NCBI GenBank assembly: GCA_030017615.1 | Contig: JASEIG010000002.1 | Location: 11,980 to 75,979, forward strand | DNA: 64,000 nt | From: Patescibacteria group bacterium | GTDB taxonomy: Bacteria > Patescibacteriota > Minisyncoccia > UBA6257 > UBA9933 | Direction of reading: 5' to 3' | Part shown: positions 25,705 to 38,522 of the stretch, piece by piece | Position numbering within the stretch: the stretch's first letter is position 1 | Layout: every line of letters starts with the position of its first letter | Program-made: the position numbers and the translations under genes | The notes under the pieces: model-generated | What the model saw: the letters and a program-made list of their open reading frames with translations, nothing else | The model's database searches: none | What the model was told of the DNA's origin: nothing

Positions 25705-26958
25705 TTATAAATAATTAAACGGGTTTAAGTCTCCGCCATACGGCATTTTAGGACCGCAGGTTTTAGCCGGAGATATTCTAAGTGTCGGTCCCGCATAAAC
25801 GGTAAAATGCAGGTGCGGCCCGGTTGAATATCCGGTATTACCGACATATCCTATCAAATCGCCGCGGTTCACTTTTTGCCCCTCTTTAACGATTTGCAGT
25901 GAAAAATGGCTGTATAGCGTTGCCAGATTATTATTATGCCGAATCACGATAAATTTTCCATACGCGCCCTTATAACAATAGCGGTCTTGATTCCCGACAG
26001 CAAGAACTTCGCCGGCTTCCGCCGCGTACACGGGAGTTCCTATTGGAGCGGAAATATCAATTCCATTATGCCACTTGCCGCGATATCCGCCATGTCTGGC
26101 AAAATCAGTGGCTCCATAATCCTGCGAAATTTTTCCCTGAATCGGCATAGCCAATACCCCCGGATGAGATGTCGGTAAAACATTTAAATCAATTTTACCG
26201 CGCATTTGGGCGTCCAATTCTTCAATTTCAGCCGCAATTTGTTCCTGTCTTTTTTGCAATTCAGAAAGAGATTGCTGATAGTTTGCTTCTTTGTTTTTTG
26301 TCTGCTCCAACACGGTTTGCCTGTATTTTTTTAGTTCTTCCGCTATTATTTTTTTATTCTCAAAATTTTTGTTTTCTATTTCTTTTTGTTTCTTATGGTC
26401 TGAAGCAATGTCAAGATTTTTTTGCAAATCATCTTTAAGATTTTTTAATTCCAGCACTTCGTAACTAAGGTTGTCTTGGAAATTAACCATTCTCTGCACT
26501 TCGGATAATCCTTCGGCAATGCTTTTATTGTTTAAAATAACCAATAAAGGATTGTTTAATGAGTCTTTTTTTTGAATCTGCCGCAAAAGTTCCGTGATAA
26601 CCGCCTCTTTTTCGTTTATTTTGCTTTCAGAATTCTGAATTTTGTATTGCGTGTCTTCTACTTGTAAACTTAATTTTTCAACGGCAACTTTACTGGATTT
26701 TATGCTTAAATTAATTTGGTTAATATTGCCGTTTATTTGTTTTAATTCTTTTTGCAAACTTTGTTTTTGTGAACGGGTTTCGTCCAGTTGATTTTGAATA
26801 TTTTGTATTTGCGTGTTGACTTCGTTAAGTTCTTGACTTTTTTTATCAATTGACGATTTTAAATCAGGGGAAACCGCAACGGCACCCGCAAAATTTACGG
26901 CTGAAATTAAAGCTATCGCAATCAAAAAAAACAAATTTGATTTTTTATCAACAGTCAT
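25705..26958 (-). CDS. EnvC-like murein hydrolase activator / M23 peptidase (signal peptide, long coiled coil, C-terminal LytM domain)
   Basis: HNGIDISAPIGTPVYAAEAGEV and GNTGYSTGPHLHFTVY M23 motifs; Q/E/K-rich heptad region. Confidence 0.85.
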   Translation of the reverse strand: MTVDKKSNLFFLIAIALISAVNFAGAVAVSPDLKSSIDKKSQELNEVNTQIQNIQNQLDETRSQKQSLQKELKQINGNINQINLSIKSSKVAVEKLSLQVEDTQYKIQNSESKINEKEAVITELLRQIQKKDSLNNPLLVILNNKSIAEGLSEVQRMVNFQDNLSYEVLELKNLKDDLQKNLDIASDHKKQKEIENKNFENKKIIAEELKKYRQTVLEQTKNKEANYQQSLSELQKRQEQIAAEIEELDAQMRGKIDLNVLPTSHPGVLAMPIQGKISQDYGATDFARHGGYRGKWHNGIDISAPIGTPVYAAEAGEVLAVGNQDRYCYKGAYGKFIVIRHNNNLATLYSHFSLQIVKEGQKVNRGDLIGYVGNTGYSTGPHLHFTVYAGPTLRISPAKTCGPKMPYGGDLNPFNYL

Positions 26959-28511: not shown

Positions 28512-30269
28512 TTATTTTCTTCCAAAAATGGAATTAAAGACATTTAATATAAAAGCGGTAATTGAAGATTTGGAATTTGAACTTTGCGGCTGAGCTTGTC
28601 CCTCTGTAGAAGGAGGTTGTGGTGGCTGTTGTCCTGCCTGTGGTTGTTGTTCTCTTAATGGCGGCATTTTTTGACCATCCGGTGGCCGTTGATATTGCTG
28701 AATTTGCTCTTCACTCGGCTGAAAATTTGGCATTTGTTCGTTGCGTTCTTGAGGCGGCGCGTTCACTTCCTGTGTTTCAGAACTTCCGGGACCTTCAATA
28801 TTTTGTCTCTGTTCCTGTTGATTAATCTGGTTTGTTGGTAATTGTCCGCCGCACCCGCTTACTATTTGGTCTATTATTTCTTTTGGATTGCCTTGAAAAT
28901 CTTTTAATTTTTGAGTAAGCGCCGGGGCAACGCAACCTCTTATTTCCGGCGGAAATGAATTAATCATTTTTCCGATATCCAATCCCCTGTTTTCATCTCT
29001 CGGCATCATCCTCTGTTCCTCTCTCATACCAGATTCTCCCGGCTCAAATTCCTGTTTCTCGCCGCGCGGACCTATCTGACCGCCAAGTTTTTCAAAACAT
29101 TCTTGCATCGCTTGACCGATTTGTTGCGAAGGCATACCGGTTTCGCTTTTCATTTTTTCAACCGCGTCATCTCCGGCTATTTGCTTAATACAATCCAAAA
29201 CTTCTTGAGGAGCTTCATTAACGGCTTTTATCATTTGCTGTTTTCCTTCTTTCATTTTTTGAAGGTCTTCAGCCGGAATCATTCCGTGTTCTATTCCAAA
29301 TTGCATACAAGCTTCTTGGTTATCTTTGCAATACGCCTCGCATTCGTTTTTACTTTTACATCCGCCGGGACCTTTACCGCCGGTTTTTTTAGCCATTTTA
29401 GCTTCTTCAGGCGTCATCATTCCATTTTGCACGCCAAAATCAACGCAAACTTGGAAATTTTCTTCTTTATTGCAAAATGCATCGCATTCTTCTCTGCCTT
29501 TACATCCGCCCGGCCCCTTCCCTTTTGTTTTTCGCGCCATTTGAGCTTCATCGGCTTTCATAAATCCGGCCTTCTCGGCAAAAGCGATACATTCTTCAAA
29601 ATGGTTTTCCTCGGAACAATAAGCGTCGCATTCTTTTTTGCCGCCGCATGGAGGCGGAATTGCGCCGTTTTTAACAGCCTGTAAAACTTTTTGCGCTTCG
29701 TCTTTTTCGTCTTCATCCATTAGCCCGGCTTGCAAAGCAAAATTCATACATTCTTCCATATGATCGGGACTGGAACAATACATTTCGCATCTGTCTTTCC
29801 CTCCGCATGGAGGCGGCTTAATTCCTTTATCTATCGCGGCTTGAACTTTTCTGGCTTCTTCTAATTCTTTCTGGTCCATCAATCCGTTTTTTTCCGCAAA
29901 AGATATGCATTCTTTTATATGACTCACGTCATCGCAATACGCCTCGCATTCCTCTTTGTTTTTACATCCGCCGGGACCTTTTTCTTTTATAATTATTCTG
30001 GCCATCTGCATTTCCCTTTTATCCATTAATTTATTTTTCTCGGCGAAATTTAAGCAGATATCCATACGCGACGGTTCATCGCAATATTTCTTACAATCCG
30101 TTTTATCTTTGCAATTTCCAAGTTCGGCGACAGGAAATTGAATATTGGCAATTTCTCCACCCTGTTGATTTTGCTGTTCCTGCGCAAAAATTTTATTGCC
30201 GGAAACAATAAATAAAGAAATTACGATTGCCGAAATTAATATCCCGGCGCTTAAAATTTTTTGTTTCAT
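28512..30269 (-). CDS. secreted cysteine-rich tandem-repeat protein: signal peptide, six ~48-aa repeats each with four Cys (C-x5-C-x3-C-x8/9-C), Q/P-rich C-terminal region, hydrophobic C-terminus
   Basis: Repeats of the form GGCKNKEECEAYCDDVSHIKECISFAEKNGLMDQKELEEARK read directly; no family recognised. Confidence 0.6.
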   Translation of the reverse strand: MKQKILSAGILISAIVISLFIVSGNKIFAQEQQNQQGGEIANIQFPVAELGNCKDKTDCKKYCDEPSRMDICLNFAEKNKLMDKREMQMARIIIKEKGPGGCKNKEECEAYCDDVSHIKECISFAEKNGLMDQKELEEARKVQAAIDKGIKPPPCGGKDRCEMYCSSPDHMEECMNFALQAGLMDEDEKDEAQKVLQAVKNGAIPPPCGGKKECDAYCSEENHFEECIAFAEKAGFMKADEAQMARKTKGKGPGGCKGREECDAFCNKEENFQVCVDFGVQNGMMTPEEAKMAKKTGGKGPGGCKSKNECEAYCKDNQEACMQFGIEHGMIPAEDLQKMKEGKQQMIKAVNEAPQEVLDCIKQIAGDDAVEKMKSETGMPSQQIGQAMQECFEKLGGQIGPRGEKQEFEPGESGMREEQRMMPRDENRGLDIGKMINSFPPEIRGCVAPALTQKLKDFQGNPKEIIDQIVSGCGGQLPTNQINQQEQRQNIEGPGSSETQEVNAPPQERNEQMPNFQPSEEQIQQYQRPPDGQKMPPLREQQPQAGQQPPQPPSTEGQAQPQSSNSKSSITAFILNVFNSIFGRK

Positions 30270-30353: not shown

Positions 30354-30596
30354 TTATTCAAATGGATTAGTCTTGGTCGTTTTATAAGGGTTGGTTTTTG
30401 TCGCGGGATTTACATCCGGCATTTTTTGCAATGGCTCCGTTTGTGTACCGTAGTCCGGCAACGCGCTCTGAGTAACATTTTCTATCGCCTTTTGCTCCGG
30501 AGTCTGAGCCGACTTTTTCCAATAAAAATATCCTCCCAACCCAAGAGCGATTATTATAACCGCAATCGCTATTAAAATTATGGTGTTTTTATTCAT
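30354..30596 (-). CDS. small membrane-anchored protein
   Basis: 80-aa ORF, N-terminal TM helix; weak support. Confidence 0.3.
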   Translation of the reverse strand: MNKNTIILIAIAVIIIALGLGGYFYWKKSAQTPEQKAIENVTQSALPDYGTQTEPLQKMPDVNPATKTNPYKTTKTNPFE

Positions 30597-30725
30597 TTTT
30601 GTTTGTTTTGAAAATTTTTAAGTTTTTCGACCATTTCTGGTTTTTTTTATTATACAATATTTTTATTTTACTAAAAAGTGGATAAGTTCTATTGGTTATG
30701 GATAAAAAAATTTTGGCGGGGATTG

Positions 30726-33092: not shown

Positions 33093-34619
33093 TTACTTTT
33101 CCGCTTTTCTTAAAATTTTCCCGTTCAAAGATTCAATCAGCTGGCCGTCTTTCATTGCGAACTTCCCGTTTACCATCACCATTTCTATTTTTGAATTTCT
33201 TATTAACACGAGGTCAGCCGCCATATTTTCAGCGATAATTCCTCTATCTTTAATTCCCAATTGTCTTGCCGGAAGACTGGTGAATTTCTGAATAATTTTT
33301 TCAATCGGAATGCCGTTTTTTGCCGCAAATTCCAAAGTTTTCGGAAATGTTTTTGAATGTTCCATATCTGTTATTTGATTATCTTCGTGAAAACTCGCGG
33401 AAGACGACGAAACTATGGATTTTCCGCTAATAAGAGCGTTAAATAAAGGTTTAACGGATAAATTTTTAAACATTAAAACTCCCCGCAATTTTGTCAGTTT
33501 CATTAATTCCAGTAAACCCTCTTTTGGATTAATTCCTCTGTCAAGACAAAAACTTTTTAATGTTTTTCCCGTTAAATATTCATGCTCCGGCGCCCGAAAT
33601 ATCTTAATTTCTTCCATTTTTAAAAGAGGCAAATCCTTTTTTATTTTTATAAGAGATTCCAATGAATTAAAATTGTTTTGAATTTCCTTGAAACTGCCGC
33701 GTTGCGCCCAAATAGGAAGAAACGCAAAAAGCGGAATCGCGGAAATTTCAAACGGATGGAGATTGAAATAAACATCCGACACAGCTGAATTATCCTCTAT
33801 TATTTTTATGCCTTCCTTGTATTCTTTTTCAAATCCTTTCGGACATGAAAAATTATTAATTTCCGCTTTAACGGCGGTTTCTTTGGCAAGGTTCACAATT
33901 TCATTCACCGATGGAATAAAATTATCTTTATTGTTTTTTAAAAATACGGAAGAATCGGAGCCGTTTCTGATTTTAACGCTGAATAATCCCCTGTTTGCTT
34001 CCACAATTTCCGCTAAAGATTTTAATTCCTTATATGAAACTAAAGAAGTAAGCGGAAAGTTCAAATCAACTGAAAAACCAAATGCCCCTTGCTTTAATGA
34101 TGCGTCCACAATATCCTTGAAAACATCAATTTCTTTTTGCGTAAGGTCTCTGAATTCTTCACCCGCTAAAAATTCCCTTAAAGTGGAGTGCCCCGCCAAA
34201 ATTCCAAAATTTACTCCGAGCGGACGTTTTTCAACGGTATTTAAAAACTCTTTAACTGTGTGCCAGTTAACATTTAATTTTGAAACATTTGTCCAAAATT
34301 TTTGAAGTTCAAGCGAACCGTAAAAAAGAGGCGCGAGAGAAATTCCCGACTGTCCGCCGATTATGGTGGTAACTCCTTGTTTGATAAAATCGGTTTGCGC
34401 GGGTTCGGTAAATAAAGACAAATACAAATCCGAAGCGGTATTTATATCAATAAAACCCGGCGCAAGATAAGCGCCCATTCCTTCCACCGCGCTGTCCGCT
34501 TTATAATTTGGAAAATATCCGATTGCGGTAATTTTTTCTCCTTTCACTAAAACATCGGCTTTCGCCGGAGGACGATTAGCCCCATTTACTAAAAAAATAT
34601 TTTTAATAAGAGTGGTCAT
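33093..34619 (-). CDS. amidohydrolase-superfamily protein (D-aminoacylase-like) with degenerate metal-binding HxH (GFIDINTA instead of GFIDxHxH)
   Basis: Small beta-sandwich N-terminus KNIFLVNGAN...VLVKGEKI and TIM-barrel body typical of amidohydrolase 3; loss of the His pair read directly. Confidence 0.55.
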   Translation of the reverse strand: MTTLIKNIFLVNGANRPPAKADVLVKGEKITAIGYFPNYKADSAVEGMGAYLAPGFIDINTASDLYLSLFTEPAQTDFIKQGVTTIIGGQSGISLAPLFYGSLELQKFWTNVSKLNVNWHTVKEFLNTVEKRPLGVNFGILAGHSTLREFLAGEEFRDLTQKEIDVFKDIVDASLKQGAFGFSVDLNFPLTSLVSYKELKSLAEIVEANRGLFSVKIRNGSDSSVFLKNNKDNFIPSVNEIVNLAKETAVKAEINNFSCPKGFEKEYKEGIKIIEDNSAVSDVYFNLHPFEISAIPLFAFLPIWAQRGSFKEIQNNFNSLESLIKIKKDLPLLKMEEIKIFRAPEHEYLTGKTLKSFCLDRGINPKEGLLELMKLTKLRGVLMFKNLSVKPLFNALISGKSIVSSSSASFHEDNQITDMEHSKTFPKTLEFAAKNGIPIEKIIQKFTSLPARQLGIKDRGIIAENMAADLVLIRNSKIEMVMVNGKFAMKDGQLIESLNGKILRKAEK

Positions 34620-35951: not shown

Positions 35952-38522
35952 TTATCCATGACACTTTTTATATTTCTTCCCACTGCCACAAGGGCATGGC
36001 TCGTTGCGACCGACGGATTTGCGCTGAACAAACGCGGAATTGCGCGGGATAATTTCCGCATTATTCTGTATTCGTCCAGTATTGGTCTGTGATAATAACT
36101 TCCAGATATTAAAAAATATCCAATCTTCAAAATTAACAAAAAGACTTTTAAACATTATAAAACTTTCTCTTCTATATTCCACCAAAGGGTCGTGCTGGCC
36201 GTATGCTCTGATATTTACCGATTCCCGAAGAGCTTCCAAATTATCCAAATGGTTCATCCATAAACTGTCCAGTGTCGCCAACACTCTGACGCGCGTTTCC
36301 AGCTCGTTTTCCGGCGTAATCGCTTTTCTGATTTTCTCTTTAAGAATTTCTTTTAAATCTTTTTCTGATGTCATCTCGTCTTTTTCAAGCACGCCGGAAT
36401 TAATAAGTGTTTTTTCTAAATTTTCTAAATTCTCCGGCTCCGCGTTTTGAGCGGATATTCTGTCAAAAGAATTTAAAATTATTTCTTCCAATGATTCGGA
36501 TAAATTATTTTCCAAAATCTTCTGCCTTTTGTCATAAACGGCAACCCTTTGTTTATTAAGAATATCGTCGTAATCAAGAAGGTGTTTTCTGGAATCAAAA
36601 TTTATGCCCTCCACTTTTTTCTGCGCTTCAACAACAACCCGGGAAACCATTTTTGATTCAATCGGCTGGTCTTCGGGCAAATTAAAAGATTCCATTATGC
36701 TTTTTATTTTTTCGCCTCCAAAAATTCTCATTAAATCGTCTTCAAGAGAAAGAAAAAATTGAGTCGCGCCGGGATCGCCCTGCCTTCCCGCGCGTCCCTG
36801 AAGCTGATTGTCTATGCGCCGCGCTTCGTGCCGTTCCGTCCCGATAACATACAGTCCTCCCAAATCCCTTACTTTCCGCGCTTTCATCGGGCTGGGCGGA
36901 TTACCGCCAAGAATAATATCAACGCCTCTTCCCGCCATATTGGTGGCGACAGTCACAGCGCCCGGTTTTCCGGCCTGCGCGATTATTTCTCCTTCACGCT
37001 CGTGATTTTTAGCGTTTAAAACCTCGTGTTTCACGCCGGCTTTATTTAACAATCCCGAAATAATCTCATTATTGTTTATGGAAGCGGTGCCGACTAAAAC
37101 CGGCTGTCCCATTTCACAACGTCTTTTTATTTCCGCCACAGCCGCATTGTATCTTGATTTCTTATTCTTATAAATTAAGTCCGGCAAATCTTCTCTTGCC
37201 GATGGTTTGTTCGTGGGGATAGTTATAACTTCCAATTTATAAACTTTATGAAATTCTTCCGCAGAAGTCTGCGCGGTTCCGGTCATACCCGCAATTTTTT
37301 TATAAAGGCGAAAATAATTTTGAATAGTCACTTGCGCGTAAGTTTTTGATTCCTGCTGAATTTGCGTTCCTTCTTTTGCCTCAATTGCCTGGTGCAATCC
37401 CCCCGAATATCTTCTTCCGGGCATAAGTCTGCCGGTAAATTCATCTACAATAATTATTTCGCCGTTTCTGTTGACATAATGTTTATCACGATGAAAAAGC
37501 GCGCGAGCGCGAAGCGATTCTTCCAAGAAATGAACGAGACGAAAATTTTCCGGACCGTAAAGATTTTTAATATTTAAAAACTTTTCAATTTTAGTTATGC
37601 CGTCATCGGTAATAGTTGCCGATTTTGTTTTTTCATCCACCAGATAATCTTCTTCTTTTTTTAAATATTCAACCGCCTTGGAAAATATTTTATAATACTC
37701 GCTGGATTCGGCATCCGGCGCGGCAATAATCAAAGGAGTTCTTGCCTCATCAATTAAAATACTGTCCACTTCGTCAATAATGGCGAAATAATGTCCGCGC
37801 TGGACTTGATCGTCCGTTCTGTATGATAAATTATCCCGAAGATAATCAAATCCGAATTCGTGGTTTGTTCCGTAAAGAATATCCAATTTATAAGCTTCTT
37901 TTCTGGATATCGGACGCAAATATTCCTGAAATACTTTAAAACTGCCCAATATATCCCGTTCTTTGTCTAATTTATCCTGATTGTTTTCCGTCTCTTGTTC
38001 CCCGTCTCTTGACATTTGTCCATTATCACGCGCCGTATAGGTTGGATCATAAAAATAAGCCGTGTTATGAGTTAGACAACCAACAGTCATCCCAAGTAAA
38101 TTGTATATCTGCCCCATCCACACTGTATCGCGTCTGGCAAGATAATCGTTGACAGTGATAATATGGACTCCTCTCCCCGTCAGCGCGTTCAAATAAGCCG
38201 GCGCGGTTGCGGCTAAAGTTTTTCCTTCGCCGGTTTTCATTTCAGCGATTTTCCCCTGATGAAGTGCGATGCCGCCTATAAGTTGAACATCAAAATGACG
38301 TTGATTTAAAACGCGTTTTGAAGCTTCCCTTACAAACGTAAAAGCTTCCGGAAGAAACTTATCTATATTATTTTCATTTCGTATTTTTTCTTTTAATTCA
38401 AAACTGTTTTTTTTCAATTCCTCGGATGAAAGTTTTACAATTTCCGGCTCCCTGGAATTTATTTCAGAAATCAGCAAATCAAAATCATATTTCCCAAACA
38501 GGTTTTTTAAAAAACTGAACAT
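35952..38522 (-). CDS. secA: preprotein translocase ATPase SecA (C-terminal zinc finger CPCGSGKKYKKCHG)
   Basis: DEAD-like NBD1/NBD2, PPXD, HSD/HWD and the canonical C-terminal CxCxSGx8CH. Confidence 0.93.
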   Translation of the reverse strand: MFSFLKNLFGKYDFDLLISEINSREPEIVKLSSEELKKNSFELKEKIRNENNIDKFLPEAFTFVREASKRVLNQRHFDVQLIGGIALHQGKIAEMKTGEGKTLAATAPAYLNALTGRGVHIITVNDYLARRDTVWMGQIYNLLGMTVGCLTHNTAYFYDPTYTARDNGQMSRDGEQETENNQDKLDKERDILGSFKVFQEYLRPISRKEAYKLDILYGTNHEFGFDYLRDNLSYRTDDQVQRGHYFAIIDEVDSILIDEARTPLIIAAPDAESSEYYKIFSKAVEYLKKEEDYLVDEKTKSATITDDGITKIEKFLNIKNLYGPENFRLVHFLEESLRARALFHRDKHYVNRNGEIIIVDEFTGRLMPGRRYSGGLHQAIEAKEGTQIQQESKTYAQVTIQNYFRLYKKIAGMTGTAQTSAEEFHKVYKLEVITIPTNKPSAREDLPDLIYKNKKSRYNAAVAEIKRRCEMGQPVLVGTASINNNEIISGLLNKAGVKHEVLNAKNHEREGEIIAQAGKPGAVTVATNMAGRGVDIILGGNPPSPMKARKVRDLGGLYVIGTERHEARRIDNQLQGRAGRQGDPGATQFFLSLEDDLMRIFGGEKIKSIMESFNLPEDQPIESKMVSRVVVEAQKKVEGINFDSRKHLLDYDDILNKQRVAVYDKRQKILENNLSESLEEIILNSFDRISAQNAEPENLENLEKTLINSGVLEKDEMTSEKDLKEILKEKIRKAITPENELETRVRVLATLDSLWMNHLDNLEALRESVNIRAYGQHDPLVEYRRESFIMFKSLFVNFEDWIFFNIWKLLSQTNTGRIQNNAEIIPRNSAFVQRKSVGRNEPCPCGSGKKYKKCHG

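Follow-up and report, generated by a model that had tools for sequence, protein, structure and literature searches.

The stretch of DNA analysed here (the window: 64,000 nucleotides of contig JASEIG010000002.1, from a Patescibacteria group bacterium) carries two adjacent genes on the minus strand. One codes for a protein containing six tandem modules of four cysteines (tetra-Cys modules), here called the Cys-repeat protein; the other, just upstream, codes for a small membrane protein ending in an Asn-Pro-Phe (NPF) motif, here called the partner. The Cys-repeat protein belongs to a large, unnamed family restricted to Parcubacteria-type Patescibacteria, on which all informatively named sources agree, and the partner gene accompanies it in nearly all loci. 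We give a probability of about one half to the reading that this two-gene cassette, specific to these bacteria, builds a structure of the cell envelope. Few groups of uncultured bacteria are as abundant as the Parcubacteria/Paceibacteria, and the way in which these ultra-small bacteria build their cell surface and attach to partner cells is hardly known.

The Cys-repeat protein and its family

The Cys-repeat protein is identical to database entry P0001 (hypothetical protein QMD86_00655, Patescibacteria group bacterium). Twenty-four of its 28 cysteines lie within six tandem units, spaced C-x5-C-x3-C-x8-C (5-3-8) in units 1–5 and 5-3-6 in unit 6. A first-pass annotation, made by reading the letters, had already described six tandem units. 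These are real, and their linkers (GPGG or PPP) agree with that description, whereas the alternative spacing of nine residues before the last cysteine is found nowhere, and the repeat, measured between the first cysteines of neighbouring units, has 48–53 residues. The motif occurs six times in the protein, whereas 20,000 shuffles of it contained the motif 0.007 times on average and never more often than once, and it is absent from every other open reading frame (ORF) of the 64-kb window, so that a chance origin is excluded. No tandem repeat was found at the DNA level in the gene, and the units are pairwise only 41–50% identical within the protein; hence the repeat array is old and is kept at the protein level only. 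The parts of the gene are as follows (pLDDT, the predicted local distance difference test score, is that of the AlphaFold2 model described below).

28512..30269, minus: Cys-repeat protein gene, 585 aa, coordinates including the stop codon (ORF list)
30183..30269, minus: putative Sec signal peptide MKQKILSAGILISAIVISLFIVSGNKIFA, residues 1–29 (read from the sequence)
29979..30143, minus: N-terminal cap IQFPVAELGN and tetra-Cys module 1, residues 43–97; Cys 53, 59, 63, 72; pLDDT >90
29820..29978, minus: tetra-Cys module 2, residues 98–150; Cys 102, 108, 112, 121; helices 105–112, 115–127, 133–147
29661..29819, minus: tetra-Cys module 3, residues 151–203; Cys 155, 161, 165, 174
29517..29660, minus: tetra-Cys module 4, residues 204–251; Cys 208, 214, 218, 227
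29373..29516, minus: tetra-Cys module 5, residues 252–299; Cys 256, 262, 266, 275
29214..29372, minus: tetra-Cys module 6, residues 300–352; Cys 304, 310, 314, 321; 5-3-6 spacing, long third helix
29079..29213, minus: di-Cys helical module 1, residues 353–397; C360...C391
28980..29078, minus: charged disordered linker, residues 398–430; pLDDT <50 over 400–430
28842..28979, minus: di-Cys helical module 2, residues 431–476; C446...C473
28569..28841, minus: Q/P-rich low-complexity spacer, residues 477–567, about 91 residues; pLDDT <50
28515..28568, minus: C-terminal hydrophobic or amphipathic helix SSITAFILNVFNSIFGRK, residues 568–585; predicted helix 569–582

A search of 5.8 billion proteins (E ≤ 0.001) gave 2259 clusters at 90% identity related to the Cys-repeat protein. 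The best 120 of these 2259 have 500–730 residues, are 40–58% identical to it over the best local alignment and are all named 'hypothetical protein', from Patescibacteria, Parcubacteria or Paceibacterota lineages. When 1.84 billion representatives were searched with a profile built from the six repeats of the window protein, 1783 proteins matched (E ≤ 0.001). The best 150 of the 1783 all carry 6–14 repeats, and therefore among the matches listed the domain does not occur outside this family. When one genome per GTDB species was scanned, 372 encoding loci were found. The named lineages with the family are Jorgensen-, Wolfe-, Yanofsky-, Staskawicz-, Harrison-, Taylor-, Nealson-, Nomura-, Gribaldo-, Wildermuth- and Magasanikbacteria, the Jorgensenbacteria being placed in the Parcubacteria group by NCBI. 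The absence of a family match claimed at first thus stands for curated families and solved structures, whereas the protein is no orphan, its family comprising at least about 1800–2250 clusters. A family of some 2000 clusters has been hidden in annotation pipelines under the name 'hypothetical protein'.

The complete cassette was also seen in three metagenome-assembled genomes labelled Gammaproteobacteria, Methylomirabilis and Aenigmatarchaeota (loci L012, L031 and L079, of which L012 has the highest GC content among the loci, 59%), and about two dozen more loci lie in third-party annotation (TPA) bins labelled 'uncultured Candidatus Saccharibacteria'. Most likely, these odd lineages reflect mis-binned contigs or generic labels.

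Within the family, identity holds at about 45% across the named Parcubacteria lineages, with 24 invariant columns. Members have 5–10 tetra-Cys units (mode 8), and 893 of 900 units are spaced 5-3-8 or 5-3-6, the latter in 149 of the 900, or about one per protein. All four cysteines are present in 1443 of the 1456 units detected, the remaining 13 being truncated alignments. The unit consensus is [GK]P[GP]GC-KGKEE-C-[DE]A[YF]-C-xxPx[NH]xEE-C-xxFAExxG[FL][MI]-xxEE..AKK, and short 25-residue modules without the third helix occur in relatives. In the N-terminal cap, P46, E49 and L50 are nearly invariant among 120 homologues; the window protein reads IQFPVAELGNC at residues 43–53, where the family has IQ[YF]PVxELGNC. 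The window protein has six modules of the kind that defines the family (at least five modules, with Tyr or Phe before Cys3 and Phe three residues after Cys4). This defines a new small domain of about 50 residues, with four invariant cysteines and a confidently predicted structure.

AlphaFold2 was run on the full Cys-repeat protein with a 120-sequence alignment. All structured parts are predicted to be helical, with pLDDT >90 over residues 41–400 and >80 over residues 431–477; the signal region, residues 400–430 and the Q/P tail come out as disordered. Each tetra-Cys unit is modelled as three helices. Cys1 lies two to three residues ahead of the short helix 1, Cys2 and Cys3 are one turn apart on helix 1, Cys4 is on helix 2, and helix 3 carries no cysteine. 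Module 2 modelled alone, from six window-derived sequences, has a pLDDT of 90.1, and the small helical modules proposed in the first-pass annotation are therefore recovered whether the full protein or one unit is modelled. The predicted template modelling score (pTM) is 0.56 despite 28% of disordered residues, which is a hint, not proof, that the modules may pack in a fixed relative arrangement.

The two ends and the region after the repeats complete the architecture. The N-terminus is Sec-like by sequence, as first proposed: MKQKILSAGILISAIVISLFIVSGNKIFA begins with basic residues, continues with a hydrophobic core and contains an IFA-Q site, at which cleavage would occur between Ala and Gln, and it has neither a twin-arginine motif nor a lipobox Cys. 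The N-terminus of the family consensus is laid out in the same way, ...AQ being followed by IQYPVxELGNC. A Q/P-rich tail of about 120 residues was thought to follow the repeats directly. Residues 353–476 had been overlooked; they hold two di-Cys helical modules and a disordered linker, and the disordered Q/P stretch is limited to about 91 residues (477–567). The first di-Cys module (helices 355–365, 367–374 and 382–396; pLDDT about 90) is kept in the family consensus as APxEVxxCL...MPxxEIGDKMxxCFEKMG. At the position of the second (helices 432–438, 441–457 and 462–473; pLDDT 80–91), most relatives have one to three short tetra-Cys modules. At the position equivalent to the spacer, the median fraction of Pro plus Gln is 0.39 across the family. 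The short hydrophobic C-terminus noted before is the 18-residue end SSITAFILNVFNSIFGRK, whose conserved motif had been missed: P[ST]S, 6–8 residues, then [LF]LG[SA][IL][LI]xxF[LF]x[LF][FL], as a rule with Arg or Lys after it, and with a Pro-rich stretch before it. A comparable tail is found in 50 of 69 complete locus proteins and in 181 of 264 database proteins (about 70%).

Three antisense ORFs of up to 193 aa lie on the plus strand inside the Cys-repeat gene (29103-29684, 29326-29544 and 28619-28825). Their equivalents recur in 24–34 of 80 loci because the sense strand is conserved, and they are artefacts, not genes.

The partner gene and the locus

The first-pass annotation placed the Cys-repeat gene downstream of gltX and upstream of murG-ftsW, and regarded this neighbourhood as uninformative. 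The order in the direction of transcription is the reverse: ftsW > murG > 80-aa gene > Cys-repeat gene > gltX. It is true that gltX and murG are not conserved neighbours, whereas the 80-aa ORF upstream is informative. This partner is an NPF-tailed small membrane protein gene directly upstream and on the same strand in the window. When 86 loci were searched with a profile built on five partners, such an ORF was recovered at that position and strand in 84 of them, the two misses being cut by contig ends. The features of the partner gene are the following.

30354..30596, minus: partner gene, 80-aa single-pass membrane protein with an NPF-motif tail (ORF list and profile survey)
30519..30584, minus: partner transmembrane helix TIILIAIAVIIIALGLGGYFYW, residues 5–26, with MNKN ahead (hydropathy, and flank charges in 80 partners)
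30357..30464, minus: partner tail motif ALPDYGTQTEPLQKMPDVNPATKTNPYKTTKTNPFE, residues 45–80
30649..30656, minus: candidate extended -10 element TGTATAAT, 53 nt upstream of the partner ATG (read from the sequence)

A partner-type gene of 88–95 aa was present just upstream in all four relative contexts fetched first, where the other neighbours differed, and no neighbour besides the partner is found in more than 6 of 80 species loci. The partner is constant and the other neighbours are not; hence the conserved unit is the gene pair, not the gltX or murG-ftsW surroundings. A search with the single partner sequence gave only 10 matches, being too insensitive for so short a protein, and against curated families the partner has only sub-threshold matches, to its transmembrane segment. 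The median gap between partner and Cys-repeat gene is 6 nt, and that of the window 84 nt; no terminator-like site was found between the two genes on the coding strand. A consensus promoter scan did not report TGTATAAT because a -35 match is lacking.

The partners align well: a few residues of basic character lead into a single transmembrane helix, which ends in GGYFYW and is followed by the tail. The tail consensus is GVLPSIxTNPLExKPDxNPxxKxNPFKxIKTNPF, followed by zero to three residues, and NPF lies in the last six residues of all 84 partners (84/84). The ending ...KTNPF defines a candidate new C-terminal peptide motif. Two simple ways of linking partner and repeats were considered and rejected. 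None of 21 proteins that are extended far at the N-terminus is a single-chain (Rosetta-stone) fusion of the two, the extensions being other domains, and the numbers of motifs and repeats are not positively correlated, so that nothing points to an arrangement of one NPF motif per repeat.

The position of the cassette suggests an accessory factor of cell-wall synthesis or division. In the window, ftsW, murG, the partner, the Cys-repeat protein and gltX are followed by an M23 peptidase with a coiled coil; prfB-ftsE-ftsX lies downstream in loci L001 and L006, with DivIC upstream in L006, and the high conservation would fit a housekeeping role in the envelope. Such a role is nonetheless quite improbable, given that across the 80 species loci only the partner recurs as a neighbour in more than 6, that the cassette appears to have its own candidate -10 element, and that no peptidoglycan-binding or enzyme domain was detected in the Cys-repeat protein.

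Some other genes of the window concern the envelope or export. The M23 protein (25705-26958, minus, 417 aa), just downstream of gltX, has a Peptidase_M23 domain and an N-terminal region resembling a coiled coil (weak Laminin_I match); it is probably a wall hydrolase or activator of the EnvC type, on which account this part of the window would be rich in envelope genes. Upstream of ftsW, where a mur ligase might be expected, the 508-aa product of 33093-34619 (minus) matches nothing but amidohydrolases, weakly and in its C-terminal part (Amidohydro_1, 28 bits). The gene for a complete SecA, which ends in a SEC-C zinc motif, lies about 6 kb upstream on the same strand (35952-38522, minus) and shows that this genome has the Sec route.

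Cysteine chemistry and comparison with known proteins

The module cysteines probably form disulfides. From the first repeat onward, the number of cysteines is even in 250 of 256 family proteins, and therefore the extra cysteines would also be paired. The di-Cys modules are unable to form a four-ligand site and able to form one disulfide each.

One may ask instead if the four cysteines of each module bind metal (structural zinc, or copper or iron) or an iron-sulfur cluster, which would make the protein a surface metal store or buffer or, at the extreme, a chain of redox centres. All four cysteines are invariant in every complete unit and no pair is ever lost, as expected of a four-ligand site; three of them lie within or immediately ahead of one short helix, with the fourth on the helix next to it, so that they could converge. 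The 25-residue modules without a third helix in relatives are typical of micro-domains held by metal or by disulfides, the C-x5-C-x3-C spacing appears in the iron-sulfur (Fe-S) literature, and these organisms are often anaerobes. However, the signal is of Sec type, without a twin-arginine motif; therefore the protein would not be exported folded with a cofactor, and a cluster made in the cytoplasm could not travel with it. The Cys-repeat protein has no CxxC knuckle, no RR signal and no Cx2Cx2Cx3C, C-x8-C-x5-C-x3-H or other recognised Fe-S or zinc-finger pattern. Only one position with His is conserved, four residues ahead of Cys4, and Asn (50%) alternates with His (47%) there, which does not fit a metal ligand. 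Two di-Cys modules in the same chain and the even cysteine counts fit pairwise bonds, and Kazal domains, which depend on disulfides, are fused to relatives. Metal binding is accordingly unlikely, and its strongest form, in which the tetra-Cys modules hold metal centres of an extracellular redox or metal-handling chain in organisms without a respiratory chain, is very improbable indeed.

Genomes of the candidate phyla radiation (CPR) are reported to be enriched in MdbA-like thiol-disulfide oxidoreductases, often adjoining VKOR (Méheust et al. 2019, PMC6744442). Genes for thioredoxin-like CxxC proteins are absent from the 64-kb window, a piece too small to be informative on this point.

Searches for known relatives gave no match above threshold in Pfam, NCBIfam, PHROGs or PADLOC for the Cys-repeat protein, the consensus unit, a two-unit piece or the C-terminal modules. 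A Pfam hit of one repeat had been named as the finding that would speak against novelty, and neither the consensus unit nor two units gave one above threshold. For the whole protein there is a sub-threshold Pfam match to AtDEF-like (E = 0.05; 14.3 bits, where the cut-off is 25). Sequence searches of PDB, with the single sequence and with a repeat profile, gave no meaningful match, and the best E-value of a Foldseek comparison of the model with PDB was 1.2, so that there is no fold match. We found no description of the tetra-Cys repeat family in the literature. No relatives of the Cys-repeat protein were found on the viral contigs of IMG/VR, and a phage origin, also considered, was rejected.

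The sub-threshold matches to defensin-like Pfam families such as AtDEF-like raise the idea of a freely secreted effector, antimicrobial or inhibiting proteases, made of defensin- or inhibitor-like units and with the partner as an immunity or export helper. Two relatives have Kazal inhibitor domains, and a small membrane protein beside a secreted protein recalls toxin-immunity pairs. We consider this far-fetched. Every defensin-like match is below the curated threshold, and PADLOC and PHROGs give none above theirs; the predicted fold of the modules, a helical bundle around a hydrophobic core, is neither that of defensins nor that of Kazal domains; the Pro-rich spacer and the hydrophobic motif at the C-terminus speak for a protein that stays on the cell; and the strong, uniform conservation with one copy per fetched locus is unlike that of effector families.

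The Helicobacter proteins HcpA, HcpB and HcpC, of the Sel1-like family, are exported proteins in which tandem helical repeats, stapled by cysteines, stack into an elongated all-helical array. By its probable build, the nearest known kind to the Cys-repeat protein would be these Hcp/Sel1-like proteins. There is no Sel1 Pfam match (E ≤ 10) for the Cys-repeat protein, the consensus unit or two units. The Hcp repeat has about 36 residues (36–44 being the range taken as criterion), two helices and two cysteines, whereas the tetra-Cys unit has 48–53 residues, three helices and four cysteines, and the Hcp proteins have no counterpart of the small partner, of the Q/P-rich spacer or of the C-terminal motif. 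What was known already is thus the general kind, exported helical repeat proteins stabilised by cysteines; what is new is the domain family and its fixed pairing with a small membrane protein.

Other proteins are alike in single aspects. In CHCH and small-Tim proteins, two antiparallel helices carry cysteines that probably lock them into a helix-turn-helix, and helix 1 of the tetra-Cys unit similarly has one Cx3C pair. Yet the cysteine pattern is not theirs, as the first-pass annotation had stated for CHCH, Kazal and ShK: all six units are spaced 5-3-8 or 5-3-6, with a single Cx3C and no Cx9C, in contrast to the twin Cx9C of CHCH and the twin Cx3C of small-Tim proteins, and no Kazal, ShK or defensin-like profile matches the window protein above its curated cut-off. 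Moreover, the tetra-Cys units have a third helix and an extra cysteine ahead of helix 1, and CHCH and small-Tim proteins belong to the mitochondrial intermembrane space, whereas the Cys-repeat protein is bacterial and presumably extracellular; there is no sequence or fold match between them. The secreted cysteine-rich repeat proteins (SCREPs) of animals (PMC6262176) likewise have tandem small cysteine-stabilised domains in one secreted chain. Their domains are knottin- or toxin-type venom domains, whereas the Cys-repeat units are bacterial helical bundles, with no sequence or fold relation to them.

The order of parts, namely signal peptide, repeats, Pro-rich spacer and hydrophobic C-terminus ending in Arg or Lys, is shared with the LPXTG substrates of sortase, the wall-anchored surface proteins of Gram-positive bacteria, in which the spacer spans the wall. 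The family motif, however, has no LPXTG ahead of the hydrophobic tail but P[ST]S...[LF]LG instead; the hydrophobic stretch of the Cys-repeat protein has only about 12–14 residues and is partly polar; and the NCBIfam family LPXTG_anchor does not match the Cys-repeat protein or three relatives. A superficially sortase-like LPTNQ (residues 477–481, about 28827-28841) occurs directly after the last module, some 90 residues ahead of the hydrophobic end, and its likeness is probably a coincidence.

The role of the cassette

We propose the following model for the cassette. The Cys-repeat protein (28512-30269) would leave the cell unfolded through Sec and, outside the membrane, fold into a chain of three-helix modules, six tetra-Cys and two di-Cys. 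Disulfides, two per tetra-Cys and one per di-Cys module, would lock them (14 in total), and short conserved Pro/Gly junctions would join the modules into a fairly stiff rod. The Q/P-rich spacer of about 90 residues would link this rod to the terminal amphipathic helix, at or in the membrane. The single-pass partner (30354-30596), which could tentatively be oriented N-in/C-out, would expose an extracellular tail of about 55 residues with four NPx motifs, ending in ...KTNPF. As a short linear motif, this tail may bind the rod and so keep it attached to the cell. The idea of a tether comes from the strict pairing of the genes, their tight spacing, and the fact that the partner is universal while the C-terminal helix of the rod is not.

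Several observations weigh against this model. The C-terminal helix is missing in about 30% of relatives, and it is too short and too polar for a classical transmembrane anchor. The charges flanking the partner helix are ambiguous (+1.6 on the N-terminal side against +1.25 on the C-terminal side), and proteins with more repeats do not have partners with more NPx motifs (rho 0.10, p 0.42). Among the 1456 units there is no complete unit without a cysteine, so that natural variants give no information on pairing. Furthermore, many such organisms are anaerobic and without quinone synthesis, and extracellular disulfide formation in them is an assumption, for which the sole support is that homologues of MdbA and VKOR have been published.

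The role is likely structural, as an envelope scaffold, a spacer or a display stalk, and the identity of about 45% with 24 invariant columns fits such a constrained role. A variant in which the rod is not an internal scaffold but the stalk of a host-attachment adhesin or fibre of an episymbiont, presenting a binding surface, must be weighed here, as some relatives carry additional domains. Laminin_G_3, which is lectin-like, is found N- or C-terminally in two relatives (P0216 and P0140), a NosD-type beta-helix in P0262, and Kazal as an extra C-terminal domain in P0118; these additions are typical of extracellular proteins, and an N-terminal domain of about 110 residues is found in others. The lectin-like additions imply that the rod can act as a stalk for binding domains. 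The protein would be exported, is repetitive, and has a Pro-rich spacer and an anchor-like C-terminal tail as in Gram-positive surface proteins, and families enriched in CPR have been linked to cell-cell interaction (PMC6744442). Adhesins are, however, usually fast-evolving, variable in copy number and lineage-specific, whereas here the identity and the position-specific features of the repeats are kept across Parcubacteria lineages. Hence, the high and even conservation favours a structural role in the envelope. In addition, no binding domain has been added to the protein of the window, viral contigs carry no relatives, and duplication into a variable family is seen at no fetched locus, each having one copy. 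We therefore hold an adhesin to be unlikely, and prefer the structural envelope role.

More tentatively, and with clearly less confidence than in the envelope role as such, the cassette may be a lineage-defining envelope apparatus of Parcubacteria/Paceibacteria, in which a new Cys-locked three-helix rod is tethered by a new NPF membrane anchor, and which could form a surface layer, or fibres that space or connect the cells to their surroundings or hosts. In these bacteria the Cys-repeat protein is a target for structural work, antibodies, labelling in cryo-electron tomography and metaproteomics.

Some further extensions were seen in relatives. The relative P0150 (1431 aa) has a Cys/Ser/Thr-rich C-terminal part of about 850 residues, in which CPSGQYW..PPSGG.GYC units recur and a stretch resembling Kazal (CPQVFEPVCGVNNVTYGNRCEAG) occurs, and in which Pfam finds no family. 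The domain of about 110 residues is unclassified, with no Pfam match, and has two cysteines. At least 15 representatives, including P0013, P0103, P0140, P0158, P0160, P0167, P0176 and P0180, have it after the signal peptide and ahead of the first repeat, with the consensus ..LKKDxxGLFTLTIxDPxGIxEFSLxPxGxxxYGGxxxxCP...DFTPxMxAxIxDCxGN..PPPxDG. In P0199 and P0232 the same domain sits C-terminally.

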